Part shown: piece by piece, positions 1-18,358 of the stretch
Layout of the letters: each line of letters starts with the position of its first letter
Position numbering within the stretch: position 1 is the first letter of the stretch
Source: a virus
Reading direction: 5' to 3' (one strand)
Length of the DNA: 64,000 bases
IMG/VR virus record: IMGVR_UViG_3300028833_000004
Notes under the pieces: generated by a model
What the model saw: the letters and a program-made list of their open reading frames with translations, nothing else
Database searches by the model: none
Told to the model about the DNA's origin: nothing
Position numbers and translations under genes: made by a program

Positions 1-25
1 GGTAATTGTGGAGTGCTAGCCCTAA

Positions 26-70
26 GGCCCATCTATGGAGCAGGACACAGTTCGATTCTGTGTATGGGCC
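26..70 (+). ncRNA. tRNA-like minihelix (acceptor-like helix plus canonical T-arm); not a complete tRNA
   Basis: GGCCCAT (26-32) is the exact complement of ATGGGCC (64-70). Between them CACAG(46-50)-TTCGATT(51-57)-CTGTG(58-62) is a textbook T-arm. The 13 nt left over cannot form D or anticodon arms. Confidence 0.3.
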
Positions 71-349
71 CTATGCCTATGAAACAAGATGGAGTCCCTG
101 CTGGATGCATGCGATTTAACGTCGCCTTGTATCAAGCAAGACTCGAATCCTTGGAGAGTTTCTTAGGCTCTAATCCGTATGCCGGGGAATACGAACTGGC
201 CTTATGCTGGGGAGTATCTCTGTCCGCGGCAATAGCCACCATGCATAAAATAATGGTTGGGATTAGAGCCGGGATACTTCAATCAAAATTCCCAATAAAT
301 GGGAAGAAGATTGGAGTAAAAGGAAACTATTATGTCGTATATAAGGCAT

Positions 350-1150
350 AACTCCTGCAGAGGGATGCGTATTCTGCATTACTCATAACGCATAACGATA
401 GATCTTAGCTATTACAAAACACCTCCTTGTAATAGCCGGACAAGTATAGGAGGTATAAATTCGACAGACTATGAATATGTATGTCGACATGGCTGTAGAG
501 CCTCACGGCCCTACGTCTGAGAATGACATCGGGATTGCCATTCTACAGGCGTTAGAATCAAGATTGGAGAGTCCTAATGCTTTCTAGGCATCTCCAATCA
601 AGTACTGTCTGTACGCAAATTCTGATGAGGACATAGCCTATTTGAGATCTTGGATTTGTAGTAATCTTAGATCTACAAATGGCAAATCTGTCCTATCAGA
701 ATTTGACTACGGTCAGTAGTAGGGCTCCTGAGTAAGACTCCGAGTGTAATGAGCTCGGGAACAGAAATCATCCCTGTATTGATATTGGTTTATCATACAG
801 GCCTAAAGTTGGCCGTACATGGACACCACTATGTGTAGGGCCTAAATTAAAGAGCATCATCTCTCTAAACTGTCTAGCGGCTTGACCACATCCTTTCGGT
901 ACTGGCGGTGAAAATCCAAACCGGGCTAGCAAGCAGCTCATCTTGTAAAACCGAGCCACCTAAGCATTCATATATGTGAGCTTTCGGCAGCAGCATGTAT
1001 GAAAGACGGGCATCCTCAATATGATGTAAAACTATTGACATCAGATAAGATGTAAAAATCCCCACTACCGGGGTGACATGGTACTCGGATTGTTAATTGT
1101 CTGGCCGAGCGGACTAGAGCAGTTCTTGACCCACGGGCTGTCGACGATCC
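350..1150. ncRNA. candidate large structured noncoding RNA or structured noncoding DNA (unclassified)
   Basis: No convincing ORF; only short, mutually overlapping ORFs in different frames. Many long helices: 408-417/427-436 (10 bp perfect), 562-570/591-599 (9 bp), 617-633/689-704 (16 bp with one bulge) enclosing 654-661/673-680 (8 bp), and 773-779/795-801 (7 bp). The strand is not determined. Confidence 0.3.
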
Positions 1151-1180
1151 ACATTTTATGTGGATATTTTGGGTATTCAT

Positions 1181-1849
1181 ATGGCAACAAAGAATATTAT
1201 TGCCGAAGTAATTAATGCGAGCAAAGATGCTCGCCAATTTAGTGAGGAAGAGCTTCAAAAGAAGCTTGCCTCTCTAAATGGGCGAGATGGCTCGCCCCTC
1301 AAAGCCGAAGAGGAGCTTTGGCTCCTCCCGGTGCTCCTTCCAAGCTGGAAGTGGAAGGGCATTGAGGGTGAATACCCTGCACTTCCAGCCATCAACCAGA
1401 ACGGACACCTGGTCGTAATAGGTCTTGGAAGCCTCGCTGGAGGTTCTGGGTACCTAGAGGATCCAGGCGAAGGAACCTGGGAAATTTCGGAGACCGGATG
1501 GTGGTATCTAAAACCGTCTGAGGTCCCCGAAGGTGGTAGCAGGGCCACCAAAGTCTGGGGGTTGTCGAGGAGTCTTAAAGACTCATTCAACGACAACCTC
1601 GAGCTCAGAGGGGTCGTATCCCTCAAAGTAGAGGAGGACGGCTATTGTTACGGGCCGAGGCTCGTAAAGGCCGGGAGTCCCGACGAGGGACGAGAGAGGG
1701 CAAGCCTGCGCTTTAAGCGCAACACCCATTTCTGGGAAGGCAAGGCCCAGCCAATAACCGCCATTCCGAGCAAACTTAAAAAGTTTGCAGAGAAGCTGGG
1801 TTTACCGATGGAATGGCTAAAACCATTCCCAGCTGACTTCTACTGCTGA
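1181..1849 (+). CDS. hypothetical protein (G+C-rich ORFan, N-terminus MATKN)
   Basis: Long ORF with 33/60 G+C at 1381-1440. I place the start at ATG 1181 because its first codons ATGGCAACnAAnAAT (MATKN) recur at the next ORF. A perfect 14-bp terminator follows. No motif recognised. Confidence 0.55.
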   Translation: MATKNIIAEVINASKDARQFSEEELQKKLASLNGRDGSPLKAEEELWLLPVLLPSWKWKGIEGEYPALPAINQNGHLVVIGLGSLAGGSGYLEDPGEGTWEISETGWWYLKPSEVPEGGSRATKVWGLSRSLKDSFNDNLELRGVVSLKVEEDGYCYGPRLVKAGSPDEGRERASLRFKRNTHFWEGKAQPITAIPSKLKKFAEKLGLPMEWLKPFPADFYC

Positions 1850-1850
1850 A

Positions 1851-1892
1851 ATAAAGGATCCTAGAGAAATCTAGGATCCTTTATTTTTTTTG
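1851..1892. terminator. intrinsic (bidirectional-type) terminator
   Basis: ATAAAGGATCCTAG (1851-1864) pairs perfectly with CTAGGATCCTTTAT (1871-1884). The loop is AGAAAT, with a T-run at 1885-1891 and an A-rich 5' flank. Confidence 0.85.
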
Positions 1893-1970
1893 GCGACTCA
1901 TCATGGCCCCAGGTACTTTATAGCGCATAAAGCGTATTATTATTTTTTTTTAATTTAATATTTTTATTGT

Positions 1971-2639
1971 ATGGCAACGAAAAATTCGTATCTGGGTGAA
2001 AAATTCAACCCAGCAGATGAGAGCGATCGTGCTCTCAAAGACATGAAGGCACTCGAATCAGTTAATTTTGAGCGCCAAGCTCCATTAACTGAAGGTGCAA
2101 CTTATATCCTCCTACCGCAGGAAAATACAGCGGCTGTATATACTATCCCAGGAGTTGGTGATAGAGTTTCTCGCCGATTCTGGGCAGTTGAGCTTAACCG
2201 AAAGAATGAGCCTGTATCTATACGTAGTATAGGCTATTCATCGATAGCCAAAATGGGATATCAAGAAAAGACTTCAGCTCAACCTGCTGCACCAGAGGTT
2301 CCTGCATATCAGGATAAAGAAGGAAAATGGCACCCGAAACGTGGGTTAAGTTATGTGTTCTCATGCGAGGACCACAACTTCATTAAGGCAAACCCAGAGA
2401 CAATGCTTATGGAGATAAAGACTCCTACGGCATTGAAAGTGATGCGTAGAGCCGAAGTGTGGGTTGCATCCTTTAAGGATCAAGCATTAGTAGTAAAGGA
2501 CGGGATGATTGTTCCTGAAGTAGATGACCGATTCGTGTTCTTCAAAACCCTCGTAGCCCCAACTGAAGATATAGTTGAGGCTTGCAAAAAGGTCCTTGAA
2601 AATGAAGACTCAATTCAAGACTGCCTTTACCTGTTGTAA
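1971..2639 (+). CDS. hypothetical protein (second ORFan starting MATKN)
   Basis: 222-aa ORF preceded by an AT-rich leader. It shares the MATKN start with 1181..1849. No motif recognised. Confidence 0.6.
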   Translation: MATKNSYLGEKFNPADESDRALKDMKALESVNFERQAPLTEGATYILLPQENTAAVYTIPGVGDRVSRRFWAVELNRKNEPVSIRSIGYSSIAKMGYQEKTSAQPAAPEVPAYQDKEGKWHPKRGLSYVFSCEDHNFIKANPETMLMEIKTPTALKVMRRAEVWVASFKDQALVVKDGMIVPEVDDRFVFFKTLVAPTEDIVEACKKVLENEDSIQDCLYLL

Positions 2640-2709
2640 GGGTAGTCTTGAAGGTAACACTTTTAAAACCGAAAATATTTCATATAAGTGTTATTTTATA
2701 AAGGGCCGA

Positions 2710-2770
2710 CCGAAACCAGCAGACGGTGAAATAGTTTATGCCATGTTTCGCCGTCTGTCTGATGATTCGG
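2710..2770 (+). other. long imperfect hairpin downstream of ORF 1971..2639
   Basis: CAGACGG(T)GAAA (2720-2731) pairs with TTTC(G)CCGTCTG (2746-2757). The outer pair is CCGAA (2710-2714) with TTCGG (2766-2770). There is no clean T-run, so its role as a terminator is uncertain. Confidence 0.4.
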
Positions 2771-2779
2771 TATTATTAT

Positions 2780-3330
2780 TAATGTATCTCCCTGAATGGT
2801 CAGGAGTATAAATATTGTTGACCAGGAATTTGTCAGTAGTATTGAAACTGTCAATATGTAGTTATATAACATCCGCAGTATTATACATTGAAATATGTAT
2901 AATTGTCTAACAAGTTATGTATAATAAGTTGAAGGTGAAATCTAAATCCTAATCCTGTATAGTTAGACTACAGGTAGCATGTGCAATACCTATAGGTCAT
3001 GCTGTGTGTATATACCCTAAGAGTATCTAGTTCCTATGCTTATAAATGGAAATGGTAGGGGTATTATACACACAAAAAATTGTATTTTGTTAATCAAAAG
3101 TAGTTCAGTATTAAAATGAAGCATAGCGGCTGGTAACCGATTAGAGAGTACCAGACATAGAGTGAAGTCTGTGTCGAAACACATTGCTATAGGAAGACCT
3201 CTATAGATAAAAGGACAATGTGTATGCAATTTCCTTACTGCATAAATCCGAGACTGTTGGTAACAGTTGAACTTCACAGACAGCTATATAGGTGGACTAA
3301 CCATCCGCATCTAGACTATATAGCTTTTTT
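2780..3330 (+). ncRNA. candidate ~0.55-kb structured RNA ending at an intrinsic terminator (unclassified)
   Basis: ORF-free on the + strand. Helices at 3004-3017/3059-3073 (14 bp, one bulge) and 3253-3258/3262-3267. It ends with the 3283-3330 terminator. The 5' end is a guess. Confidence 0.3.
3283..3330 (+). terminator. intrinsic terminator not attached to an ORF
   Basis: GCTATATAG (3283-3291) pairs perfectly with CTATATAGC (3316-3324), followed by TTTTTT (3325-3330). Confidence 0.7.
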
Positions 3331-3581
3331 ACTCATACCACTGTGATAGGTGGTATGGGTCCTATCTTGCTTTCTGATATACAATCAGTGGACAACTGCT
3401 TACTTTGAAGAATAAAGGTATGGCAAGAGCTGCACTCTTACTAGGTTCTTGAGTGATAACTTCAAAGCGCTGCGTTTATTAGAGCGTGGAAACAGAAATC
3501 TAATACTCTATTTCTTATTCAGAGTATAACTGAATATATCCCATCCGATGGTAGTGAAAACGATGTAAAACTAAACCTACC

Positions 3582-3607
3582 AATTTTTATTAACAATCTA
3601 AAAATTA
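3582..3607 (+). promoter_or_regulatory. 26-nt upstream motif copy 1 (AATTTTTATTAACAATCTAAAAATTA)
   Basis: Matches 3993-4018 at 25 of 26 positions. Ends 8 nt before ATG 3616. Confidence 0.4.
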
Positions 3608-3615
3608 TTAGTAAT

Positions 3616-3984
3616 ATGCAAACAATTATGTATCAAGATGAAAAAGGATATAGATATATCCCAGTTTTCCAACCAGAGTTATCAAACTTGTTTGAATATA
3701 CTCGAAAAAAAGTATATCACATCTATACAGATAATCCTAAATGGTGTGGAAAAATATTACCAGAAGTAGTAAATGACACATCTATAGACGTAGGTACAAG
3801 AACTTATTGGCTGGAGAGAACTAATAACTCCATAGAGTGGGGACTAAAACCTTATCACAAGATATCATTTAAAGACATTGAAGAATTAGATGAAGATATA
3901 TGTGAAATATATAATTTTGAGTCAATTGGAATTGATTCAAGTGGAGTTTATGAATATGAAATTATCTATCCCTATGATGATTAG
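3616..3984 (+). CDS. hypothetical protein
   Basis: AT-rich 122-aa ORF ending on TAG. It is preceded by the conserved 26-nt motif. Confidence 0.65.
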   Translation: MQTIMYQDEKGYRYIPVFQPELSNLFEYTRKKVYHIYTDNPKWCGKILPEVVNDTSIDVGTRTYWLERTNNSIEWGLKPYHKISFKDIEELDEDICEIYNFESIGIDSSGVYEYEIIYPYDD

Positions 3985-3992
3985 GGATAGAT

Positions 3993-4018
3993 AATTTTTA
4001 TTAACAATTTAAAAATTA
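3993..4018 (+). promoter_or_regulatory. 26-nt upstream motif copy 2 (AATTTTTATTAACAATTTAAAAATTA)
   Basis: Second copy of the motif. Ends 6 nt before ATG 4025. Confidence 0.4.
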
Positions 4019-4024
4019 AAAAAT

Positions 4025-4324
4025 ATGAAAAAAGTATATAACGTTGTTCATCACTATGATGTTGATGGCGGAATTGGATATGCCATCAGTCAAAAAGAAG
4101 TTCTATTTATAACTTCTGTCAAAAAAGTGGCAGAAGAATTTATAGATAAATATTCCCATGATCATGTCTATGATGTTCCATATTCAGAACTTCATATGGG
4201 ATTATTAAAAGTGGAAGAATTCAATGTAATAGAATCTTGGGAGGATATCCCCAAAAATATAATTGAATGGGGAGATGAAAACAAAAGTGAGACAGACAAC
4301 TATAATCCGGATGACTATCATTAA
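4025..4324 (+). CDS. hypothetical protein
   Basis: 99-aa AT-rich ORF preceded by the conserved upstream motif. Confidence 0.65.
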   Translation: MKKVYNVVHHYDVDGGIGYAISQKEVLFITSVKKVAEEFIDKYSHDHVYDVPYSELHMGLLKVEEFNVIESWEDIPKNIIEWGDENKSETDNYNPDDYH

Positions 4325-4382
4325 GATTATGAGTTTTCTATCTCAGACTGGTTAGATTGGTAATTATTAAAATATATAAATT

Positions 4383-4601
4383 ATGAAGAAGATATTGAAT
4401 TATATACTGTTGTACGGCACAATAGTGTACAGCTTGCTATTTTTAATGGCGGCAGAGTCATTAATCGAAAGCCTTCCCGCAATAGCCTGTATTATGATTT
4501 TAATACAGGCAACATTAATATTCTTATGTATAGGAATATTTGGAGATGGAAAGTGGCGTGAATATGTACCTAAATGGATAAGTAGGATGGATGAAGATTA
4601 A
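4383..4601 (+). CDS. small membrane protein (two hydrophobic segments)
   Basis: 72-aa ORF with the hydrophobic stretches ILLYGTIVYSLLFLMAA and AIACIMILIQATLIFLCIGIF. Confidence 0.6.
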   Translation: MKKILNYILLYGTIVYSLLFLMAAESLIESLPAIACIMILIQATLIFLCIGIFGDGKWREYVPKWISRMDED

Positions 4602-4804
4602 TTAAATCATGATATATCCTTATATAATGAAACCCTTTTTGACTAACCATTTATGGAGGAATAAATGGAAGCAGGTAAGAAGACATAATAGAAATTGACC
4701 AATTTTCATTATCCTGAGGATCTGGGTACACACAGTATCCTGAAAGTCTTCAATTTGTTCCTAAGAGAGTGATATCTGTTAGGGGCACTAACCCTGCAAA
4801 GGGA

Positions 4805-4878
4805 TTTGTCGTATTAATTTGTGTTTTTCCTGTCGAGAGAGTCTTAATCCTTATTTGGTTGGAAGATGGTTTAGAAGA
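4805..4878 (+). repeat. 74-nt repeat, module order A(4805-4840)-B(4841-4878)
   Basis: A is TTTGTCGTATTAATTTGTGTTTTTCCTGTCGAGAGA. B is GTCTTAATCCTTATTTGGTTGGAAGATGGTTTAGAAGA. Both modules recur at 6350-6423 in the opposite order. Confidence 0.9.
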
Positions 4879-5101
4879 CATGCGCGTGCGGTTATATAAG
4901 TAGTGTGTCTTCCGAGTAGTGTGTCTTGCGAACGACTCGGATGAACGACTACAAATTAACGTTTTTTTAGTAACTTGTTTGGGCATGTTAAGTCTTGGTG
5001 TTGATTTCATGTTCTCGAAGTGTCCGTTTGAGGTATATTCGGACGATTTTTATATTACTATTTCAAAAGTGGAGGCACCACGATAAAAACTGTTTATTGT
5101 T

Positions 5102-5383
5102 ATGTATTTATTGAACGCATTTAGTTTGCAGATGGTGGAAACACCTGTATCTGTGAAATTTTCTGAAATAGAAGTGAACGAATTGCCCAAAGAATTAACA
5201 TCAGCCATCGGGCATGCGGATACTGCTGCTGTTCTTGGTGTTGAATGCAATCGCATAAATGTTAAATTAGCAAAAGGCGATACCGCATACGTTGCCCAAC
5301 TGATGGGCGGACGACTCCCCGAAGGGAGCACAACTCTCCCCGAAGGATTCCACTTCAAGTTTATTAAGGTGGACGTTGAATAA
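5102..5383 (+). CDS. STIV B116-like / DUF1874 family small protein
   Basis: YLLNAFSLQM near the N-terminus, then SAIGHADTAAVLG...NRINVKLAKGDTAYVAQLMGGRLPEG. This parallels my recollection of B116 (FLTNAFSINM...NAIGHDST...NRVEVKMNEGDEALIIM..RLEEG). Confidence 0.7.
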   Translation: MYLLNAFSLQMVETPVSVKFSEIEVNELPKELTSAIGHADTAAVLGVECNRINVKLAKGDTAYVAQLMGGRLPEGSTTLPEGFHFKFIKVDVE

Positions 5384-5499
5384 ATCCCTTATTCAAAATA
5401 ATCAATACGTCAAAGAGCTAATAAATAGGATTTTTGACTAAAATGACAAATCATAAATCCTTAATTAAAAATTACTTATATTTATAAACCTACAATCAA

Positions 5500-5925
5500 A
5501 TGCCATTTAATGAGATGTGGGAAAGTTTAGTGAATATGTATAAGAGTACTGTAATGTTTCTCCGCTCAAATCGGAGAAATCGTCAAACAAAAATGACGAG
5601 GGGCGAATATTGTCCAGGAGAGCTTAAAAGTTCTCAGGCAATTCGCCAAATACTTTTTGATTTGAGAGGTAAGTTAATTCACTTTCCCAAGGATTCTTGG
5701 GTGTACTACATCTTAAGAGACCTTAAGATGGAAGAGTTCCGAAGAGGTGAAATAACCTACTGGAGATGTTGCCCGTACTTTGAGAGGGTGTACATTAACT
5801 TCAATGATGAAGCTAATTGGAACGAACTCCAAAGTACAGGTAAACTCTCCTGGGCTCGGGATGAGTATATATCATGGCTAAAAGCTGTGATGCCGCTCCG
5901 TTCTGAGATTATCCAGGTAGAGTGA
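5500..5925 (+). CDS. hypothetical protein
   Basis: 141-aa ORF with no recognisable motif. Composition is intermediate. Confidence 0.5.
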   Translation: MPFNEMWESLVNMYKSTVMFLRSNRRNRQTKMTRGEYCPGELKSSQAIRQILFDLRGKLIHFPKDSWVYYILRDLKMEEFRRGEITYWRCCPYFERVYINFNDEANWNELQSTGKLSWARDEYISWLKAVMPLRSEIIQVE

Positions 5926-6259
5926 TCTCCATCGGAGTTCCCACTACAGCAATGTGAATGGCAAGAGAGTGGGTGAAAGAGAGTTGCCCGCTGGTCACGT
6001 AAGACCACAGTCGAAGGTTACACGGAATCTTAAAGATGTAACCGAGTATTTAAAGTTGGGGACAAGTGATTGGTTTTGCTTGTACTTTCTAAATGGGTGT
6101 ACGCCATTCCGTCGGGAATAGTATTCTACTACCATTCCTTGTAAACGACCCGACGCTAAATAATAAACGTTCGACAACGGAAGGACTTGTGCTATCAGGC
6201 TGAACGGGCGGAAATATAGCAATCGCATGGGTTAGGTGCGTCCGTGCGGTTGCTTTTTT
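5926..6259 (+). ncRNA. candidate ~330-nt structured RNA or 3' UTR element capped by a terminator (unclassified)
   Basis: 32/60 G+C at 5941-6000. Helices at 6016-6022/6037-6043 (7 bp), 6110-6116/6149-6155 (7 bp), and 6048-6055/6085-6094 enclosing 6062-6066/6079-6083. The terminator lies at 6219-6259. Confidence 0.3.
6219..6259 (+). terminator. intrinsic terminator
   Basis: GCAATCGCA (6219-6227) pairs with TGCGGTTGC (6245-6253) over 9 bp, one of them a G-U pair. TTTTTT follows at 6254-6259. Confidence 0.65.
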
Positions 6260-6349
6260 GTTATGCACCAAAACGATTTGAACGGATGAAGAGTCTGAAA
6301 ATTTGGCTTGTCAATGTATCTAATTGGCAAGTTGTAGAACATTGCGGCG

Positions 6350-6423
6350 GTCTTAATCCTTATTTGGTTGGAAGATGGTTTAGAAGATTTGTCGTATTAA
6401 TTTGTGTTTTACCTGTCGAGAGA
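6350..6423 (+). repeat. 74-nt repeat, module order B(6350-6387)-A(6388-6423)
   Basis: B is identical to 4841-4878. A differs from 4805-4840 by one substitution (TTTTTCC versus TTTTACC). Confidence 0.9.
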
Positions 6424-6480
6424 CAGTAAGATCCTGTTGTGAAACAGTGTCTCTGGCATTTTAGATGTTAATAATATACG

Positions 6481-6508
6481 GGTATAGGAGTTTGAATACT
6501 CCCATACC
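6481..6508. repeat. conserved hairpin element, copy 1
   Basis: GGTATAGGAGT, loop ttgaat, ACTCCCATACC. This gives 10 of 11 bp. The flanks GGGTATAG... and ...ATACCTyCTAA are shared with copy 2. Confidence 0.8.
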
Positions 6509-6575
6509 TCCTAAAGTAATAAAGTTGTTAAAACTTTGCTGAGGCCGAATATACTCGCTTAGGCTTTGTTACTTG

Positions 6576-6603
6576 GGTATAGAGATTTGGTTATCTCTAT
6601 ACC
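6576..6603. repeat. conserved hairpin element, copy 2
   Basis: GGTATAGAGAT, loop ttggtt, ATCTCTATACC. This gives 11 of 11 bp. Three stem positions differ from copy 1 on both strands in a compensatory way. Confidence 0.8.
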
Positions 6604-6667
6604 TTCTAATTTAATTGAAGAATTTATTTGTTGTTTATTGGGTTGTTTTGTTGAAGTTTGTCATGAG

Positions 6668-6723
6668 GATTACTTAATTGGGGTTAAGTAATCAGAACTC
6701 TCCCCTGAAATATGGGGAGAGTT
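6668..6723. terminator. tandem perfect hairpins at the 3' end of the - strand gene (possible terminator)
   Basis: GATTACTTAA (6668-6677) pairs with TTAAGTAATC (6684-6693). AACTCTCCCC (6696-6705) pairs with GGGGAGAGTT (6714-6723). The second hairpin abuts the stop of 6724..7476. T-runs are weak. Confidence 0.5.
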
Positions 6724-7476
6724 TTATAAAACTATATCTTGAAAATTAACTTTATTTTCTTGTATATGTTTTACCAGTGCATTAATTGTTTTAGATTGAT
6801 GTTCTAACTTCTCTTGTAATTGTTTATATTTAAGAGATAAATCATCATGTTCTGATTGTAGAGATTCAATTTTAGAATCTGTTTCTAAGAATTTAAGAGC
6901 AATAGTATTGGCGAATTCATTAAAATTATATATTCGCTGGTAATTACATTCTAAATCAGTATGCCCATTATCTGGGATTTTTACCAATATATTTTTATCT
7001 TCTAAGGATTTCTCATATTTTTGTAAAGTTCTGGGATCTATATTGAGATAATTTGCTAATTGTTTATTACTATATGTAATAATTCCATTTTGTGCAACTG
7101 GATCTTTAAACATAAATTGTTGACTCATTACAATCATCGACTTATCTCTAGAGGATAAATTAGAATCATTTAGAAAATCAAAAGAAAATATTTCAAATTT
7201 ATTATAATCATTAAAGGTATATATAGAAGATGTGCCAGGTCTCTTAGTTATATTAATATATCCTGCATTTTCTAACCTTTTAAGTCCATTTAAAATAGTT
7301 TTTCTATCTAATTCGGAATCTTTTACAATAGTGGAAATTTGTGGATATGCCTGTTTTGTTTCTAAATTCATATATTTTTTAATACAGGCATAGATATAGG
7401 GATCATTTAGTGTTAATCCTTGCTTTTTTAAATCCATATTTGGGATTTGTACGTGCTGTTTTGATAATTCATTCAT
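6724..7476 (-). CDS. double winged-helix DNA-binding protein (putative replication initiator or early regulator)
   Basis: Two wHTH-like segments: YPQISTIVKDSELDRKTILNGLKRLENAGYINITKR and ITYSNKQLANYLNIDPRTLQKYEKSLEDKNILVKI. The C-terminus is coiled-coil. It is the only - strand gene of the early arm and is divergent from the iteron cluster. Confidence 0.5.
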   Translation of the reverse strand: MNELSKQHVQIPNMDLKKQGLTLNDPYIYACIKKYMNLETKQAYPQISTIVKDSELDRKTILNGLKRLENAGYINITKRPGTSSIYTFNDYNKFEIFSFDFLNDSNLSSRDKSMIVMSQQFMFKDPVAQNGIITYSNKQLANYLNIDPRTLQKYEKSLEDKNILVKIPDNGHTDLECNYQRIYNFNEFANTIALKFLETDSKIESLQSEHDDLSLKYKQLQEKLEHQSKTINALVKHIQENKVNFQDIVL

Positions 7477-7640
7477 AATAACTTTTATTTTTTACAAAAT
7501 TACTAAAATATAAATATATAAAAAAGATAATGTTATTATTTTTAAAATAATCTAAAGAAGTTATTATTATTGCATAAATGTAATTAGGTAGTGTAATTTT
7601 TGTAATTATATTGGGAATTAAATAAACTTATTGGTATTGG

Positions 7641-7724
7641 TATACAAATTCGATACTACCCTATGCAAATTCGATACTACCCCCCTATGCAAAATTGGTA
7701 CTACCCTATGCAAAATTGGTACTC
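7641..7724 (+). repeat. four tandem ~21-nt iterons
   Basis: The four units are TATACAAATTCGATACTACC, CTATGCAAATTCGATACTACCC, CCTATGCAAAATTGGTACTACC and CTATGCAAAATTGGTACTCT. They sit in a very AT-rich divergent intergenic region. Confidence 0.85.
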
Positions 7725-7846
7725 TAACTATACTTATATATACTTATATAACTATACTTAACCGGCTAAGCCGGAACCTAGCCTCGAAATGTACAATAAT
7801 TGTACAAAAGAGGGCTACCATATGGTAAAAATAGAGCTGGGTCAAT

Positions 7847-7919
7847 GCCGCAATAGCTCAATGGATAGAGCAACTGACTTCTAATCAGTAGGTTGTAAGT
7901 TCGATTCTTACTTGCGGTA
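7847..7919 (+). tRNA. tRNA-Arg (anticodon TCT)
   Basis: The cloverleaf can be drawn by hand. Acceptor: GCCGCAA/TTGCGGT (G1-U72). D-arm: GCTC-AATGGATA-GAGC. Anticodon arm: ACTGA-CTTCTAA-TCAGT. T-arm: GTAAG-TTCGATT-CTTAC. Discriminator: A. Confidence 0.85.
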
Positions 7920-7990
7920 CTAGGGAGAGAGGAGTATCTCCACCCTCAAACACTCCCAACTGCTTACTAATCAGTTAAATATATTTTTTT

Positions 7991-8067
7991 ATGAGGTGAA
8001 CATTAGTATAACGTGTGTGCTTTTTTTGTTTTCATGTTTTTAGCTATCTATACTAATGTCACCTCAT
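7991..8067. terminator. long inverted repeat flanked by T-runs (bidirectional terminator candidate)
   Basis: ATGAGGTGAACATTAGTATA (7991-8010) pairs with TATACTAATGTCACCTCAT (8049-8067) over 19 bp with one bulge. T-runs lie on both sides. Confidence 0.6.
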
Positions 8068-8107
8068 TTCTTTTTTATGAACAGACTTAATATTAATATA
8101 TAAAATC

Positions 8108-8263
8108 ATGAAACCTATAATGATTCTTTTGCTTGTTTTATTTATTTTAACAAGTACATTTGGATTAGTTAATTTCAACTTTAATCCTAAACAAGAATTT
8201 CTTATACTCTTAATTATAGGATTATTTGGAACATTATTATCAATATTTTATTTTATGTTATGA
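8108..8263 (+). CDS. small membrane protein (51 aa)
   Basis: Translates as MKPIMILLLVLFILTSTFGL...LILLIIGLFGTLLSIFYFML. Its stop overlaps ATG 8260 of the next gene. Confidence 0.45.
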   Translation: MKPIMILLLVLFILTSTFGLVNFNFNPKQEFLILLIIGLFGTLLSIFYFML

Positions 8264-8592
8264 CAAACCAACAACTAGCCCGGAGAGAGAAACTTCGTAA
8301 AGTTATGAATTGTTACATTCTAACTGAAAACCAAACTCTGAGTACTCTTACTCAGTTTGTAGATTATGCTTTTATCTATAAATTAAAGCAATTAGGCTAT
8401 TTAATGAATAATGGCCGACTTCTTCGTTGGGTTAATAGAGAATTTTTATCAAATGTTGAGAGAAATTCTGAATTTATTATCCTACGTGGATGGGATGGAA
8501 TCAGCAAATTGCCAAAACTCGGAGAACCTAAATTACTCCAAGAATTTACTAATCAAGAATTAATGAATGAACTTTTAAGAAGATTATGCTAA
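8260..8592 (+). CDS. hypothetical protein
   Basis: 110-aa ORF in the packed + strand operon. Confidence 0.6.
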   Translation: MTNQQLARREKLRKVMNCYILTENQTLSTLTQFVDYAFIYKLKQLGYLMNNGRLLRWVNREFLSNVERNSEFIILRGWDGISKLPKLGEPKLLQEFTNQELMNELLRRLC

Positions 8593-8879
8593 ACACCTAC
8601 ATTAACGAGGGAAAACGCACTATAGTTGTAGTCCTCACAGAAGGTAATTTATCATTTGTTGGAAAAGCAAAATGCTCTCCAAATGATATTTTTGACGAAT
8701 CCAAAGGTAAGAAGATTGCTCTTAAAAGAGCACAAATCAAATTCTACAAGCACTTGAAGCAAATGAATTCTATTCGAATATCTATGCTTAATGGAGCAAT
8801 TAATCAATTACAAGTCGAAAAAGAAAAGTTTGGCTCCAAAATCCAAAAACTGGAACAACAACTTAAAGAATTAAATTAA
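8586..8879 (+). CDS. hypothetical protein (conserved-looking GKAKCSPNDIFDESKGKKIALKRA segment)
   Basis: 97-aa ORF that overlaps the upstream stop. The C-terminus is coiled-coil. Confidence 0.6.
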   Translation: MLNTYINEGKRTIVVVLTEGNLSFVGKAKCSPNDIFDESKGKKIALKRAQIKFYKHLKQMNSIRISMLNGAINQLQVEKEKFGSKIQKLEQQLKELN

Positions 8880-8899
8880 CTTTTTAAATATTTAAAAAC

Positions 8900-9136
8900 A
8901 TGGAACAAAACATTATTAATGTCTATGTAACCAAGAGAGGTATACGTAGAGTGTTGTCCTGCGATTACGACGGACAAAATGAAGTTGATATTATTTTCGA
9001 ACTATCGAAACCCGATCAACAAGTGTATAACTATATTAATCTTAATAGAAAAGAAGCACTGTGTCTTCTTTTCGAATTGTTAAGACAATTACTTCCTGGT
9101 AGTTTTCTTATTAAAAAGAAAAATCAAACTACTTAA
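8900..9136 (+). CDS. hypothetical protein
   Basis: 78-aa ORF followed by a terminator. Confidence 0.55.
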   Translation: MEQNIINVYVTKRGIRRVLSCDYDGQNEVDIIFELSKPDQQVYNYINLNRKEALCLLFELLRQLLPGSFLIKKKNQTT

Positions 9137-9144
9137 CTATCATA

Positions 9145-9179
9145 ACACACCTGTTCGTGAGAATGGGTGTGTTTTTTTT
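9145..9179 (+). terminator. intrinsic terminator
   Basis: ACACACC (9145-9151) pairs with GGTGTGT (9166-9172), followed by a T-run to 9179. Confidence 0.75.
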
Positions 9180-9199
9180 AACTAGTAAAAAAATATAAA

Positions 9200-10174
9200 A
9201 TGAAAATATTAACAGAAAGAGATGTGAATAAGCATGGCTGGGGTATAGTATCGGTAATTACATCCGACATGCTAGAGAAATATGGGTATACACAAATTGG
9301 AGATTATGCTTTTTGGGGCGATGATCTTGAATCAATCATAATACCTAATAGTATAACAAAAATTGGAATTGGCGCGTTCAGAAATTGTCCTAAACTGACT
9401 TCAGTAACAATCCCCAATAGTGTAACAATTATTGACTCTAGGGCTTTTTTAAATTGTAGTAATTTAACCTCAATCAAGATTCCAAATAGTGTAACAGGTA
9501 TTGGTATACATGCTTTTAATGGTTGTTCTAATTTAACTTCAATAGTAGTAGAAGCAGATAATCCAAATTATGATAGTAGAAACAATTGCAATGCTATAAT
9601 AGAGACTGCTACAAACACTCTTATCGCTGGTTGTAAAAATACAATTATTCCCAATAGTGTAACAAATATTGGAAGTTTTGCCTTCTATAGCTGTGATGAT
9701 TTGACATCTATAATAATTCCCGATAATGTAATTAGCATTGGAGATGATGCTTTCTGCAAAACAGGTTTGAAATCCATATCTATTCCAAATAGTGTTACAA
9801 GCATTGGATATTGTGCTTTTAAGGATTGTAAAATTAACATACCTAAAAAATATGATAGTCTGGGTAGACTAATTGCATATAAAGGATTTGATTCTAAGAT
9901 GCAATGTTATGATCATTTTCAATACATTGAAGGACATACTTATAAAACTTCTGAAGCTATATTATGTGAATGCGGATTCCACGCTTGTACTAATCCCTTA
10001 GATATATTTTCTTATTATTTCGGAAGAATAAATAAAAATGTATATATACATGAGGTATATCTTGATGATGTAAGTACTGAAAAGGGTACGGATAGTAAGG
10101 TTGTATCTAAGAAAATAACTATTGGTCGAAGATTAACCATTGAAGACATAAACAATATAATACAAGAAAAATAA
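9200..10174 (+). CDS. BspA-type leucine-rich-repeat protein with conserved Cys/His C-terminal domain (array copy 1)
   Basis: Repeats of about 23 aa with the pattern LTSIxIPNSVTxIGxxAFxxCxx. The C-terminal part reads [34 protein letters not shown]. Confidence 0.8.
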   Translation: MKILTERDVNKHGWGIVSVITSDMLEKYGYTQIGDYAFWGDDLESIIIPNSITKIGIGAFRNCPKLTSVTIPNSVTIIDSRAFLNCSNLTSIKIPNSVTGIGIHAFNGCSNLTSIVVEADNPNYDSRNNCNAIIETATNTLIAGCKNTIIPNSVTNIGSFAFYSCDDLTSIIIPDNVISIGDDAFCKTGLKSISIPNSVTSIGYCAFKDCKINIPKKYDSLGRLIAYKGFDSKMQCYDHFQYIEGHTYKTSEAILCECGFHACTNPLDIFSYYFGRINKNVYIHEVYLDDVSTEKGTDSKVVSKKITIGRRLTIEDINNIIQEK

Positions 10175-10221
10175 AAAAACATTTGTATAATTCAAAAACA
10201 AAGTAAAAAAAATAAACAAAC

Positions 10222-11070
10222 ATGAAAACATTAACACAAAATAGTGTAATTGAACACGGATGGGATAAATTATCAGTTATAACGGCTGATATGATAGAAA
10301 AATATAGGTATACACAAATTGGGAAAAATGCTTTTAATCATTGCCATAGCCTTACCTCAATTACTATACCTAATAGTGTAACAACCATTGGACTTTATGC
10401 TTTCTATGATTGCACTAATCTTACCTTAATAACCATTCCAAATAGTGTAACAAAAATTGGGGATTATGCTTTCTATAATTGCCGTAGTCTTACCTCAATA
10501 ACAATACCAAATAGTGTAATAGCCATTGGGTGTTGGACTTTTTATAGATGTAATAATCTTACCTCAATTACTATTCCAAATAGTGTAACATACATTGGAA
10601 ATGGTGCTTTCTATCATTGCAGTAATCTTACCTCTATAATCATACCTAATAGTGTAACAACCATTGAAGATGATGCTTTTGCTGATTGTGGAATAAACCT
10701 GCCTAAAAAATACGATAATCAAGGTAGGTTAATTGCATATAAGGGATTTGATAAACACATGCAATGTCGTGGTTTTCAATACATTGAGGGTGAAACCTAC
10801 GAAACAGATAAAGCTAAGTTATGTGTATGTGGTTTTCATGCTTGTACAAATCCTCTTGACATATTTAACTATTATGCTGGTGAAATAAATAATAAAATGT
10901 TTATTCACGAAGTGTATCTTGAAGATGTAAGTGGTGAGGAAAAAAATGATAGTAAAGTAGTTAGTAAGAAAATAACCATAGGTCGAAGATTAACAATTGA
11001 AGATATTAATAATATATTACAAGATGAAAGAGTTAACACGAGACAATGTAACCAAACATGGATGGAATGA
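10222..11070 (+). CDS. BspA-type LRR protein (array copy 2)
   Basis: Same architecture as copy 1. Its 3' end reads through the start codon of copy 3, giving a 47-nt overlap. Confidence 0.8.
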
Positions 11071-11845
11071 ACTATCGGTTATTACAGCCGATATGATAAA
11101 GGAATATGGCTATACTTCTATTGGAGAATACGCTTTCTATAATTGTAAAAATCTAGTTTCAATAACCTTACCAAATAGTATAACGAATATTAGAAGAAGT
11201 GCTTTTTTTAATTGTTATAAATTAGCCTTTATAACAATTCCTAATAGTGTAATCAGTATTGGAAATTATGCTTTCACATTTTGTCACAGCTTGACTTCGG
11301 TTATTATTCCTAATAGCGTAATAAATATTGGAAATAATGCATTCACTGGTTGTAATAGTCTAACCTCAGTCACAATTGGTAATGGTACAACAGGCATTGG
11401 AGATTGTACTTTTGCTTTTTGCAATAATCTTATTTCTATTATCATTCCTAATAGTATAAAAATTATTGGATTTCGTGCTTTTGGAGGTTGTAAAATAAAG
11501 TTGCCTAAAAAATATGATGCCCAAGGTAGATTAATTGCTTACAAAGGATTTAATAAAAACATGCAGTGTCGTAATTTTCAATATGCGGAAGGACAAACTT
11601 ATGAGACATACAAGGCGGAATTGTGTAAATGTGGCTTCCATGCCTGTACTAATCCTCTTGATGTATTTACTTATTATGCAGGTGAAATAGGTAAAGATAT
11701 GTTTATCCATGAAGTATATCTTGAAGAAGTGAATGATGAAGAAGATAGTGATAGCAAGATAGTTGCTAATAAAATAACTATTGGTAAACGTTTAACAATC
11801 AAAGATATTAATAAAATTATACAAAATGAAAATATTAACAGATGA
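11024..11845 (+). CDS. BspA-type LRR protein (array copy 3)
   Basis: I place the start at ATG 11024 ([14 protein letters not shown]), which aligns with the N-termini of the other copies. Same architecture. Confidence 0.8.
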
Positions 11846-12571
11846 TGAGGTAATTAAAAATGAATGGAATAAAAAGTCCATTATCACCTCCCATATGATA
11901 GAAAAATATGGATACACACAAATTGGAGATCATGCTTTTTTATTTGCCACAATCTTACCTCTATAACTCTTCCAGATAATATAACTAGTATTGAAGCTTA
12001 TGCTTTCTATGGTTGTAACAGGCTGACTTCGGTCACAATTGGCAATAGAGTAACAAGTATTGGAAAGTGTGCATTCGGAAATTGTAAAAAGCTTGCATCT
12101 ATAAATATACCAAATAGTATAATAAGTATTGGAGATTATGCTTTCCATGATTGCTATGGGCTTACTTCGATTGTTATATCAAATAATGTAACAAATATTG
12201 GATGTGGTGCGTTTAGAACAGGTAAATTAATAATTCCTTTAAAAAAATATGATAATCTAGGCAGGTTAATTGCTTATAAAGGTTTTCGTAGAGATATGAC
12301 TTGTCTTGGTTTTCAATACGAAGAGGGAAAGACCTTCGAAACAAATAGAGCAAAGTTATGCGAGTGTGGATTTCATGCTTGTATCAACCCATTGGATGTT
12401 TTCAATTACTATTATGGGAAAATAAATGAAGATATAGTTATTCATGAAGTATATCTTGAGGGCGTATCAGAAGATTTAAGCCCATTTTTATATGATAGTA
12501 AGGTCGTTGCAAAGAAAATCACTATTGGCAAAAGATTGTCTATAGAAGACATTAATAAAATTATACAATAA
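11826..12571 (+). pseudogene. BspA-type LRR protein (array copy 4) interrupted by a 1-nt frameshift in a T6 run
   Basis: The ATG 11826 frame ([14 protein letters not shown]...GDHAF) stops at TAA 11964-66. The homologous LRR and C-terminal domain continue in the +2 frame from about 11936 to 12571. Confidence 0.7.
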
Positions 12572-18055: not shown

Positions 18056-18358
18056 ATGACAGATTACACAGGAAAGAAAGTAATTGTCCGCTCGCACGGA
18101 GCGGGAGTGTTCTTCGGAACGTTGAAAGAATTTGATGCCGCCAACGGTATCGTAGAGTTAACAAACTGCCGCCGTGTGTGGTACTGGAGCGGTGCAACCT
18201 CGCTGTCCCAACTCGCTTGCGAGGGCGTTAAGAATGCCGGAGGCAGCAAGATAACGCAAGAGGTTGCGTCTATATGCGTTACACAAGTTTTGGAAATTAT
18301 TCCATGCACGGAAGAGGCTATTGAAAATCTAAATCGTGTGCCGGTATGGAAGATGTAA
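18056..18358 (+). CDS. hypothetical protein (G+C-rich cassette)
   Basis: 100-aa ORF (GKKVIVRSHGAGVFFGTL...RRVWYWSGATSLSQLACEGV). No function assignable. Confidence 0.65.
   Translation: MTDYTGKKVIVRSHGAGVFFGTLKEFDAANGIVELTNCRRVWYWSGATSLSQLACEGVKNAGGSKITQEVASICVTQVLEIIPCTEEAIENLNRVPVWKM

Follow-up and report, generated by a model that had tools for sequence, protein, structure and literature searches.

A probable viral CRISPR mimic enclosing an anti-CRISPR operon in a Bacteroidota-type phage

Analysis of the 64-kb window, that is, the whole stretch of viral DNA under study, revealed two repeated modules, A and B, which occur in the order A-B to the left (4804-4878) and B-A to the right (6350-6423) of an anti-CRISPR operon. 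Since B corresponds to the type III CRISPR repeat of a presumed host, A has the size of a spacer and the enclosed cargo carries an AcrIII-1 gene, we consider the locus to be probably a viral CRISPR mimic with an anti-CRISPR operon at its centre, and not a transposon-like junction. The layout therefore reads spacer, repeat, anti-type III operon, repeat, spacer, which is a repeat-spacer-repeat mini-array circularly permuted around its cargo. A predicted AcrIII-1, a protein family that destroys the type III second messenger, is framed here by exact repeats of that same type, and the locus suggests that a large phage of Bacteroidota, from samples of gut or rumen type, counters this defence by protein and RNA together.

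Layout of the locus and its cargo

The repeat finder, together with direct reading of the sequence, returned a 38-nt pair with 97% identity for module A (4803-4840 and 6386-6423), and a second 38-nt pair with 100% identity was returned by the repeat finder for module B (4841-4878 and 6350-6387). All copies lie in direct orientation, and the functional edges reported in Table 1 assign 37 nt to each module. The two B copies are identical at 38/38 positions and the two A copies at 36/37, the single differing base being T4827 versus A6410, while two nucleotides (GA) are common to both modules at the B-A junction. The base preceding A1 (G4803) is the same as that preceding A2, and A4878, just past B1, is also duplicated. 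A preliminary description had reported these swapped-order repeats, with identical B copies and A copies one substitution apart, and on both points the repeat finder agreed with it, as did independent assemblies on the order of the modules; the small internal repeats it had mentioned within A and B are present as well. Its coordinates were correct to within 2 nt, the length of A being 37 nt and the functional length of B also 37 nt.

A pattern search allowing up to 3 mismatches found exactly two copies each of A and B in 64 kb, against 0 expected in 100 shuffles. The two B copies are separated by 1472 nt in every long contig, the nearest other copy lies 1509 nt off, and both are located in non-coding stretches. 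Each stands as a solitary repeat, as no further full or partial repeat occurs within 100 bp and nhmmer found no degenerate copy in the flanks. Additional degenerate copies suspected by eye and local alignment (A0, B0, A' and B3*) were within the window-wide background and were also missed by the CRISPR-repeat profile, and were discarded. No two repeats are separated by a spacer-sized gap and a third repeat is absent from the window, so that the linear genome is devoid of a canonical repeat-spacer-repeat.

Table 1. Features of the locus, in window coordinates
Feature	Coordinates	Strand	Basis
A1, 37-nt spacer-sized module (ATTTGTCG...GAGAGA), directly 5' of B1	4804..4840	+	Repeat finding, pattern search
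B1, exact copy of the predicted type III CRISPR repeat, GTCTTAATCCTTATTTGGTTGGAAGATGGTTTAGAAG	4841..4877	+	37/37 to host array, repeat profile
Cargo leader with 16-nt tandem repeat (4899-4930), GAACGACT twice	4878..5101	+	Repeat finding
Predicted AcrIII-1 / Crn2-type gene (DUF1874, STIV_B116-like), 93 aa, SAIGH motif	5102..5383	+	Pfam, phrog_5063, PDB
141-aa gene, function unassigned, small family with YWR..P.W motif	5500..5925	+	Family alignment, AF2
Strong intrinsic terminator, 15-bp stem and T-run, closing the cargo operon	6218..6262	+	Terminator search
B2, second exact copy of the repeat	6350..6386	+	37/37 to host array, repeat profile
A2, second spacer-sized module, directly 3' of B2	6387..6423	+	Repeat finding, pattern search
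Hairpin, last bases of A2 paired with the right flank	6414..6458	+	-16 kcal/mol, z -1.95
Replication-initiator-like gene (HTH_36 / DnaD_N), converging on the locus	6724..7476	-	Pfam, PHROG; synteny anchor

The bracketed 1.47 kb consists of the AcrIII-1/DUF1874 gene, a small conserved gene and a terminator. The 93-aa product matched PF08960 in Pfam (34.9 bits versus a gathering cut-off of 26), phrog_5063 (8e-16) and the PDB entries 2j6b (1.2e-4), 2x4i, 6scf and 2j85, and has 36 viral homologues. Its SAIGH motif aligns with SAIGH of AFV3-109 and with SIGH of 2x4i, and the His of the IGH motif is presumably the catalytic one. Membership of the AcrIII-1 family predicts that the protein is a ring nuclease destroying cA4. 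Its start codon lies 224 nt from the end of B1 and its stop codon 967 nt from the start of B2, placing both repeats within the 1 kb used to associate solitary repeat units with acr genes.

The 141-aa protein had no match in Pfam or PHROG, and its AF2 model (pLDDT 87) had no fold match in the PDB; as judged from the family alignment, the true start of the gene may be M13, at 5536. The preliminary description had placed a DUF1874 gene, an ORFan and a terminator-capped structured segment in the cassette. The terminator proved real, and a structured RNA in 5926-6262 beyond it was unsupported, the fold z being only -1.76. Rfam searches gave only chance matches in 4400-6900 and 1-3700, the sole match in the window being a tRNA-Arg.

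The repeat, its matching array and its orientation

The CRISPR identity of B, absent from the preliminary description, reframes the whole feature. A metagenome scan with a 20-mer of B led to contig Ga0326513_10000242 (L178), whose CRISPR repeat is 37/37 identical to the first 37 nt of B. The array comprises 14 repeats with a period of 69-77 nt and spacers of 32-40 nt (median 38), and is accompanied by a RAMP protein (Csm5/Cmr6/Cmr4-like), a CARF protein (TIGR02221/DxTHG), cas1, CAPP type B (1e-114) and cas2. The type III call is based on these neighbours, Cas10 falling outside the stretch examined. The same order of cas1, CAPP_B, cas2 and array was found in L057, L059 (with a CARF protein) and L074, and L119 has a like succession of ORFs, as judged by their sizes. 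CAPP_B has been reported as a type III protein nearly confined to Bacteroidetes (PMC8211822). The presence of a CARF effector in the system matching B suggests signalling by cyclic oligoadenylate.

A family scan, which required three GTCTTAATCC starts with the 10-mers 50-80 nt apart, matched more than 120 arrays. The 37-nt repeats from Bacteroidales agreed with B at 23-31 of 37 positions (best 21/27 outside the forced 10-mer), and a profile of 26 of them matched only B1 and B2 in the window (E 6e-6). By sequence comparison, B is a member of a 37-nt repeat family common in Bacteroidales and an exact copy of a Bacteroidota type III CRISPR repeat. Exact scans returned no match for the B core in IMG/VR or for a B 23-mer in GTDB genomes, and a literature search for the repeat or tag sequence gave nothing useful. 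The leader and trailer of the host array showed no similarity to the phage flanks or cargo. When the 13 L178 spacers and 1212 spacers from related arrays were compared with the window, only chance matches were obtained, the best being a 19-nt match to a ribosome-binding site. As no examined spacer targets the window, the presumed link between phage and host rests on repeat identity and on translation signals: a Shine-Dalgarno sequence precedes only 7 of the 74 window genes, a scarcity shared with the host loci, which indicates a Bacteroidota-type phage.

Module A adjoins B without a gap at the edge of the repeat, flanks each B copy on the outside and, with its 37 nt, falls within the spacer range of the matching array. 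No match to A was found in IMG/VR (exact and further scans, both strands), in JGI metagenomes, or among the 13 L178 spacers and the 1212 spacers of related arrays, these sequence collections being incomplete as a source of targets. When A was compared with relatives and host cas loci, the best match was 25/37; it fell within an AbiEi-like gene, had the wrong sense and was treated as chance.

We infer that the crRNA-sense strand of B is the minus strand of the window, opposite to the acr genes, and that B is consequently antisense on the plus strand. This orientation derives from the direction of the cas operon, which runs into the array, from a degenerate repeat at the distal end and a conserved leader beside cas2, and also from a hairpin with an 8-nt tail after it in gammaproteobacterial members of the family. 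B starts with GUCUUAAU, which exactly complements the 5' tag inferred for the crRNA, AUUAAGAC, and in 7 of the 8 phage groups with the B repeat family the flanking genes have the antisense-of-crRNA strand as their coding strand.

The locus would most likely act as the RNA arm of an anti-type III module, in which transcripts bearing B engage the RNA machinery of the host type III system. Transcripts of the minus strand would be repeat or crRNA mimics occupying Cas6 and effector subunits, while B read together with the acr genes would give an anti-repeat/anti-tag RNA, complementary both to the repeats of the pre-crRNA and to the 5' tag of the crRNA. Either strand could complement the protein inhibitor, as in Racr/Acr pairs. 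The B pair and the A pair would also serve as substrates of homologous recombination, by which the cargo could be looped out or amplified, and the product of A x A recombination would hold a canonical repeat-spacer-repeat. Type III CRISPR systems tolerate mutations in the protospacer, which makes escape hard for a phage, and to our knowledge few type III counter-measures have been described, AcrIII-1 being the main one. The locus offers a concrete candidate type III repeat mimic, for which the matching host array and the cas locus are available, and ties an uncultivated phage lineage of about 158 kb to probable hosts with CAPP_B-type type III systems. The strand bias among phage groups suggests that anti-repeat/anti-tag RNA may be a general trick.

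A bolder and quite unlikely possibility is that the phage deliberately places the type III repeat antisense on its own transcripts. If so, A1-B1 would form a perfect 'self' target, in which an anti-tag follows the protospacer and whose RNA would be bound by type III complexes while Cas10 stayed off, and the anti-repeat RNA could pair with every pre-crRNA repeat of the host, blocking crRNA maturation. Such an antisense RNA anti-CRISPR beside AcrIII-1 would represent a mechanism so far undescribed.

Phage context and alternative readings

The window carries replication genes, the intergenic repeats have phage genes as neighbours, and no cas, integrase or recombinase genes were found among the 20 largest ORFs. 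When the locus was compared by BLAST with INPHARED phages, a tRNA was the sole match. The phage L179, which is 43% related, has the same acr gene (73% amino acid identity) in syntenic position beside the rep gene and no A or B, so that the cargo looks resident and not inserted. None of the relatives examined showed an A/B footprint; their content was unrelated, or they had the acr gene and no repeats. The DRR855036 variant diverges in sequence directly past the rep gene. No repeat of the B family occurs near the 36 other viral DUF1874 loci, and direct repeats around DUF1874 genes followed no common pattern in 12 other viral loci. Repeats of the B family are present elsewhere among phages: a solitary one in the related phage L052, intergenic and often partial copies in about nine IMG/VR phage groups, and two mini-arrays 2.8 kb apart in the phage-like contig L207.

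The arrangement was found unchanged in other assemblies. Two contigs, one of 117 kb from JGI and one of 158 kb from ENA, were 100% identical to window positions 1-11383, two more JGI contigs (4803-6942 and 4823-6791) spanned both copies, and both B copies were perfectly conserved in every sample. The same structure in independent assemblies shows that the arrangement is no assembly artefact, a possibility the preliminary description had raised. Its suggestion of a unit existing as a circle or tandem array finds a hint in the Logan contig L011, where 5768-6387 is joined directly to 4841-5489 to give cargo-B-cargo, and in the JGI contig L007, which begins exactly at 4803, the first base common to the L-A1 and B2-A2 contexts; these hints of repeat recombination also fit other explanations. 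Effects of the k=31 graph or transcript ends would equally produce the L011 junction and the L007 start, and the Logan contigs end as expected where a k=31 graph meets a 38-nt repeat. Should the sample 3300024342 / SRR7634052 be RNA, the contig ends at 4757 and 4803 would be those of transcripts. A protein database search for ORFs spanning alternative junctions returned none.

The permuted order might instead be the scar of recombination or integration, with little present function, an origin that we regard as rather unlikely. In this model A is native phage sequence, a protospacer that the host took up as a spacer, and a crossover of this protospacer with the host array, or the repair of a break, copied the adjoining repeat, A-B-A being formed in the phage and the cargo later coming to lie between duplicated repeats. 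In a variant, the nested 37-38-bp repeats are target-site duplications made by the host Cas1-Cas2-CAPP integrase with the 37-nt repeat as its ruler; the nested duplications could then be footprints of this integrase and the acr operon a giant 'spacer' in a phage neo-CRISPR locus. Both nested direct repeats have the repeat length of the matching system, the junctions fall exactly at repeat borders, the GA shared at the B-A junction agrees with such an event, and the single mismatch in the outer pair (A) against none in the inner pair (B) is what an earlier outer duplication would leave. The hairpin between the end of A2 and the right flank, which 7 of 200 shuffles equalled in folding, is a weak hint that the two once formed one contiguous unit. 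Spacer-protospacer recombination also occurs. Phage integration into CRISPR repeats has been documented (bioRxiv 10.1101/2020.10.09.333658), as has the integrase activity of CAPP-associated Cas1-Cas2 (PMC8211822). However, an empty site (L-A-R or L-A-B-A-R) was absent from all contigs examined, a 1.47-kb insert is far beyond known prespacer sizes, and the acr gene is syntenic in a repeat-free relative. Moreover, the perfect conservation of B in every sample argues for a recent origin or for selection, and at least two rare events would be needed. A working viral mini-array, used in inter-virus conflict or to reprogram host Cas proteins, appears still less probable. The reverse complement of B1 followed by that of A1 on the minus strand, or the repeat-spacer-repeat from A x A recombination, would be cut by host Cas6 into a crRNA aiming the type III complex at a rival phage or at a transcript of the host, or diluting host crRNAs. 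A type III crRNA needs the upstream repeat only, as its 3' end is trimmed, and this single-repeat requirement favours the proposal, as do the repeat identical to that of the host, the typical spacer length and the genuine B-family mini-arrays of L207. Viral mini-arrays with host-identical repeats target related viruses (PMC11656645), and crispr-like regulatory RNAs synergising with Acr proteins have been described (bioRxiv 10.1101/2024.10.29.618823). Against it, no protospacer of A on either strand was found in IMG/VR, the JGI sets, relatives or host cas loci, the linear genome holds no repeat-spacer-repeat, and the described Cracr classes are types V-A and I only. In addition, the spacer would match the phage's own plus strand at A1 and A2, the latter without a protective anti-tag.

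The mobile cassette originally envisaged, a 1.5-kb element with att-like A and B modules, excised as a circle and moved between phages by a recombinase acting in trans, is very unlikely. It would account for the cargo-B-cargo junction of L011, the start of L007 at 4803 and a contig (L009) of 1539 nt, equal to 1509 + 30, and the GC content of the cargo (0.40-0.46) exceeds that of the phage (about 0.28). Yet segments 1-3500 of the phage are likewise GC-rich, the Logan contig ends are those expected from the assembly graph, and B is a CRISPR repeat and not an att core; the preliminary description had itself considered the permuted repeat to be unlike an ordinary duplication, inverted repeat or att core, with which we concur. 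The cassette is further weakened by the lack of a recombinase in the cargo or among the 20 largest ORFs, by the syntenic acr gene without A/B in L179, and by the scans that found no other A/B in IMG/VR, no A in JGI metagenomes and no B 23-mer in GTDB; neither a recombinase nor empty or alternative sites emerged from the ORFs and relatives scanned. As for ordinary promoter, terminator or regulator-binding motifs outside CRISPR, the short internal direct repeats in A and B do resemble operator half-sites. However, the 37/37 identity of B to a CRISPR repeat and the occurrence of two copies only in 64 kb speak against them, no sigma-70 match lies inside A or B, the Bacteroidetes -33/-7 pattern is not enriched and no terminator signal was found in either module. 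A likeness of reverse-complement A to the T7 promoter (AAATTAATACGAC) was dismissed, since the promoter of a phage RNA polymerase would be expected in many copies. The proposal of protein- or RNAP-binding modules thus survives in that B is a recognition sequence of the Cas/crRNA machinery, and fails as to a promoter or terminator motif. Together with the identical structure in independent assemblies, the repeat identity effectively refutes this reading and that of an assembly artefact.

Comparison with known systems

Read as a CRISPR mimic, the locus is of the viral solitary-repeat/mini-array kind, differing by the bracketed acr operon and the permuted order. A likeness is also offered by the PeSL-type mobile regulatory cassettes of T4-like phages, where short direct repeats flank small accessory genes in a hyperplastic region and mini-circles can form. 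PeSLs are promoter and stem-loop units of constant order and many copies, whereas the repeat described here is a CRISPR repeat in two copies and permuted order.

Solitary repeat units (SRUs) of viruses, which show enrichment at distances of up to 1 kb from acr genes, function as RNA anti-CRISPRs, and joint expression of Racr and Acr has been proposed (PMC10651486). The locus resembles the SRU/Racr elements of Camara-Wilpert et al. 2023 (PMC10651486) in carrying an intergenic copy of a host repeat, away from cas genes and no more than 1 kb from an acr gene. Unlike them, it has two identical full-length repeats 1.5 kb apart around the acr operon, each fused to a spacer-sized unit on opposite sides, and the repeat belongs to a type III, CAPP_B-associated Bacteroidota system. 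A classical Racr is a sense RNA co-transcribed with the acr gene, which the orientation proposed for B does not fit, B being probably antisense to the crRNA on the gene strand.

Viral mini-arrays (Faure 2019, Medvedeva 2019) carry repeats identical to those of the host, according to a review (PMC11656645). With mini-arrays and Cracrs (bioRxiv 10.1101/2024.10.29.618823) the locus shares host-identical repeats, a neighbour of spacer length and the association with an Acr. In contrast to mini-arrays, its repeats are parted by a 1.47-kb operon, its spacer is duplicated outside the repeats, and this spacer has no viral or host target in IMG/VR, the JGI sets, relatives and host loci searched. Cracrs are known for types I and V-A only (bioRxiv 10.1101/2024.10.29.618823).

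AcrIII-1 is a ring nuclease that destroys the type III cA4 signal (Athukoralage et al. 2020, as cited in PMC11656645). The cargo gene conforms to AcrIII-1/Crn2 in its DUF1874 domain, its conserved GH motif and its occurrence in a virus whose probable host has a type III system signalling by cOA. Its predicted 93-aa product is shorter than the AcrIII-1/Crn2 proteins of archaeal viruses and, unlike other members, its gene is flanked by the repeat of the very system it would inhibit.

Finally, the segment lying between direct CRISPR repeats, the spacer and repeat homology as substrate and the involvement of an Acr recall the recombination between phages and CRISPR arrays (Varble et al.; bioRxiv 10.1101/2020.10.09.333658). 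There the segment lies in a host array of type II-A, whereas here it resides inside a virulent-type phage genome with no integrase and the system is of type III. With its order of spacer, repeat, cargo, repeat and spacer, the locus forms a bridge between solitary repeats, mini-arrays and recombination involving CRISPR arrays.

Swapped-order repeats and the identity of module B

The arrangement reported in the preliminary description, two modules ordered A-B at the left end and B-A at the right end, was confirmed by sequence inspection, a repeat finder and a pattern search. All copies lie on one strand, and the right-hand B-A junction has 2 nt (GA) common to both modules. The proposed motif search, allowing up to three mismatches, returned exactly two copies of each module within the 64-kb window, against a chance expectation of none. 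An assembly artefact, named there as a possible refutation, was ruled out because the same structure is also present in contigs of 117 kb (JGI) and 158 kb (ENA), both matching window 1-11383 at 100% identity, and in two more JGI contigs that cover both repeat copies (4803-6942 and 4823-6791). These contigs were retrieved by exact-protein look-ups of the flanking and internal genes.

Features of the locus, of its surroundings and of a contig with related mini-arrays (window coordinates unless stated)
Feature	Coordinates	Strand	Remarks
Module A pair	4803-4840 / 6386-6423	same	38 nt, 1 mismatch; repeat finder and sequence inspection
Module B pair	4841-4878 / 6350-6387	same	38 nt, identical; repeat finder and sequence inspection
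Leader of cargo			224 nt; 16-nt tandem repeat inside
Leader repeats	4899-4930; 4931-4955		tandem 16-mer (AGTAGTGTGTCTTCCG / AGTAGTGTGTCTTGCG); then GAACGACT twice
141-aa gene, partner of acrIII-1	5500-5925		7-sequence family, YWR..P.W motif
Terminator, strong	6218-6262		closes the cargo operon
Two similar hairpins	6481-6509; 6577-6605		GGGTATAGGAG...CTCCCATACC and GGGTATAGAGA...TCTCTATACC
rep terminator	6699-6722
rep gene	6724-7476	minus	HTH_36/DnaD_N
Four iteron-like repeats	7641-7723; 7847-7920		about 21 nt (TATRCAAAWTYGRTACTACCC), upstream of rep, then tRNA-Arg(TCT)
GC-rich stretch	352-1159		GC 0.40-0.47, long, no credible ORF
45-nt block	727-771		CCTGAGTAAGACTCCGAGTGTAATGAGCTCGGGAACAGAAATCA; nearly identical in L052 (region 13760-13910)
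MATKN paralogues	1160-1849; 1971-2639		about 225 aa, MATKN at or near both N-termini
Second long non-coding stretch	2640-3615		block 3129-3379 conserved with L052 8978-9253
Four tandem paralogues	9200-12571		BspA-like leucine-rich repeat (LRR_5) and DUF7666; 69-nt internal repeats
GC-rich island	18336-18647		GC 0.48, due to 12- and 18-nt tandem repeats in ORF 18346-19065
L207 mini-arrays	4441-4539; 7337-7646 (L207)		2 and 4 repeats; bracket 2.8-kb segment with Bro-N gene

Module B starts with GTCTTAATCC, which resembles the beginning of a CRISPR repeat. When GTDB genomes were scanned for exact matches to a 23-mer of B, none appeared. A further scan for three GTCTTAATCC starts with array-like spacing (10-mers 50-80 nt apart) matched at least 120 CRISPR arrays; among the matches listed, 37-nt Bacteroidales array repeats had 23-31 of 37 positions in common with B, and a Bacteroidales UBA3297 repeat did best (21 identities in the 27 positions not fixed by the 10-mer). 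Hosts of such repeats included Bacteroides, Parabacteroides, Prevotella (rumen MAGs among them), Porphyromonas and Muribaculaceae. A profile built from 26 Bacteroidales repeats gave significant matches at the left and right copies of B and nowhere else in the window (E 6e-6). A metagenome scan with a central 20-mer of B led to JGI contig Ga0326513_10000242, which carries a 14-repeat array whose repeat, GTCTTAATCCTTATTTGGTTGGAAGATGGTTTAGAAG, equals B over all 37 positions; the other two matches were chance occurrences inside coding sequence. Base 38 of B varies across the matching array and is thus the first spacer base, giving a repeat of 37 nt.

Genes next to the matching array encode a RAMP protein (Csm5/Cmr6/Cmr4-like), an AbiEi-like product and a CARF-family protein (TIGR02221, DxTHG motif); they also include cas1 and cas2, between which a CRISPR-associated primase-polymerase type B (CAPP_B, 1e-114) is encoded. 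The order cas1, CAPP_B, cas2, array was also found in Parabacteroides massiliensis, a Bacteroidales MAG and a Bacteroidaceae MAG, the last with a CARF protein too, while a rumen Prevotella MAG showed unannotated ORFs of matching size and order. Zabrady et al. report CAPP_B mostly from type III operons and, with few exceptions, from Bacteroidetes (PMC8211822). This gene context (RAMP, CARF, CAPP_B) identifies B as belonging to a type III system that signals by cyclic oligoadenylate, the very kind that AcrIII-1 inhibits.

Module A and the sense of the crRNA

With B taken as 37 nt, A also measures 37 nt (4804-4840 and 6387-6423) and in either copy meets B precisely at the edge of the repeat. The matching array has spacers of 32-40 nt (median 38); A is thus spacer-sized and in spacer position, and the locus reads as spacer-repeat, cargo, repeat-spacer. 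Neither half of A had an exact match in IMG/VR or in JGI metagenomes. A matched none of the spacers of the matching array nor any of 1212 spacers of related arrays, reached nothing above 25/37 against host loci, and showed no likeness to the conserved leader of host arrays. A weakly significant hairpin, in which the last seven bases of the right-hand A pair with the right flank, hints that the two may be an old contiguous unit. The 300 nt from this copy to rep consist of two hairpins and the rep terminator.

In the host loci that were annotated, the cas operon points at the array and GTCTTAATCC is on the opposite strand; a degenerate repeat sits at the array end distant from cas2, and a leader-like motif is conserved in the flank next to cas2. 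Gammaproteobacterial family members form a hairpin, CCCT...AGGG, followed by exactly 8 nt (ATTAAGAC), solely in the reverse-complement orientation; a hairpin with an 8-nt tail is the classic shape of a Cas6 product. Together these features point to a crRNA sense of ...AAGGATTAAGAC with the 5' tag AUUAAGAC. In the phage genome that sense would then lie on the minus strand, and the plus strand, which encodes the acr genes, would be the anti-repeat, starting with the exact anti-tag GUCUUAAU.

A family-motif scan of IMG/VR returned 26 contigs, three of them with arrays, and about nine independent phage groups with intergenic, often partial, solitary copies. GTCTTAATCC lay on the coding strand of the flanking genes in 7 of the 8 informative groups, which include the window and its relative L052, a suggestive bias (about p = 0.035) that comes from few groups and depends on the inferred orientation. 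The exception, IMG/VR phage L208 (10272-11536), has three family copies oriented in crRNA sense, two of them immediately upstream of an ATG and the third 11 nt upstream of one, a strand logic opposite to that of the other groups. In L207, a phage-like IMG/VR contig, two mini-arrays of the same repeat family, whose crRNA sense runs with the contig's genes, provide a possible parallel to the window architecture.

The cargo, its phage and its relatives

The window is a phage genome segment of about 28% GC with nearly all genes on the plus strand, encoding DNA polymerase A, helicases, primase, ThyX, NrdD and ligase; no cas gene or integrase was found among its 20 largest ORFs. A Shine-Dalgarno sequence precedes only 7 of 74 genes, and such scarcity is usual in Bacteroidota. 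The 1.47-kb cargo comprises a leader, a DUF1874 gene, a 141-aa gene and a terminator. The leader repeats look like an operator for an Aca-type regulator. The 93-aa DUF1874/STIV_B116-like product (Pfam 34.9 bits, cut-off 26) also matches phrog_5063, and it aligns, SAIGH motif included, with AFV3-109, SIRV ORF114, entry 6scf and STIV B116; the DUF1874 family is that of the AcrIII-1/Crn2 ring nucleases (PMC11656645). The 141-aa protein gave a confident AlphaFold model (pLDDT 87) with no fold match in the PDB, and is a candidate for a new protein of anti-defence or regulation.

To the right lies a convergent replication-initiator-like gene, rep, whose upstream iteron-like repeats probably mark an origin. 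Homologues of its product occur on 107-172-kb contigs, and the region from rep to the next conserved block is hypervariable. In contig L004 (DRR855036, 996-1091), rep is 98.8% identical to that of the window and unrelated sequence begins right past its stop codon; close relatives thus hold different content at this locus. In the related phage L052 (Rep identity 54%), a single solitary repeat of B's family lies in a long non-coding stretch, right after a tRNA-like T-arm/acceptor minihelix. Phage L179 (43%) has an AcrIII-1 homologue (73% aa identity) in the syntenic place beside rep, with neither a repeat of B's family nor flanking direct repeats. The acr gene therefore looks resident in the phage group, with A and B looking like lineage-specific additions, which weakens the earlier proposal of a recently inserted mobile cassette. 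Neither A, B nor B's repeat family was found near 36 other viral DUF1874 loci.

In L052 the 45-nt block is followed by the minihelix (GGTTCGATTCC...) and then directly by the solitary repeat. In the window, the GC-rich stretch containing this block is possibly a large, conserved non-coding RNA; neither Rfam nor ARAGORN returned anything for it, and Rfam gave no match for the second non-coding stretch. The MATKN paralogues, with GC up to 0.57 in this 28% GC phage, matched no family; their homologues stand in tandem in relatives L052, L182 and L184.

Origin, population variants and possible function

The permutation can most simply be seen as a circle, made up of repeat-spacer-repeat and cargo, in linear form. 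It could have originated by homologous recombination at A (protospacer x spacer), by repair of a break in A from both ends with a host array as template, yielding A-B-A, or by nested 37-38-bp target duplications by Cas1-Cas2-CAPP. Logan contigs (k=31) break exactly as predicted for a 38-nt repeat (L049 ends at 4870, L010 spans 4849-6379, L002 and L003 begin at 6358). In contig L011 (SRR10838750), 5768-6387 is joined straight to 4841-5489, giving cargo-B-cargo, the join that a B x B circle or tandem duplication would have, and contig L009 measures 1539 nt, that is 1509 + 30. Contigs of 3300024342 / SRR7634052 (L050, L051, L007) show ends at 4757 and another start at 4803, the first base common to the left flank-A and right-hand B-A contexts, as would be seen with a coexisting B-A-B junction. 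The L011 junction, the L009 length and the 4803 start are leads and no proof; low-coverage tip clipping can also yield the first two and the 4757/4803 ends. These ends could otherwise be transcript ends, if the sample is RNA (metatranscriptome), or the gap a structural variant in the population. The 45 nt directly left of the left-hand A are unassembled in these data sets, which may be the same sample (JGI and Logan, respectively).

The best-supported reading of the locus is a two-armed anti-type-III module. AcrIII-1 would remove the cA4 signal, and a repeat-bearing RNA would engage the host crRNA machinery, either as a minus-strand repeat and spacer unit processed into a decoy or guide crRNA, or as a plus-strand anti-repeat/anti-tag RNA.

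Taken singly, AcrIII-1 and the solitary repeats and mini-arrays of viruses are already known. The novelty lies in a phage carrying an exact copy of a type III repeat (CAPP_B-associated, Bacteroidota), in two such repeats being paired around an AcrIII-1 operon, in the permuted order spacer-repeat...repeat-spacer and in an apparent bias towards the antisense strand. The locus is directly testable and of clear interest for the CRISPR/anti-CRISPR field. Solitary repeat units have been demonstrated to act as RNA anti-CRISPRs and associate with acr genes (PMC10651486), an association matched by B and acrIII-1 in the window; the existence of viral mini-arrays (PMC11656645) and the synergy of Cracr arrays with Acr proteins (bioRxiv 10.1101/2024.10.29.618823) likewise match a two-armed module.
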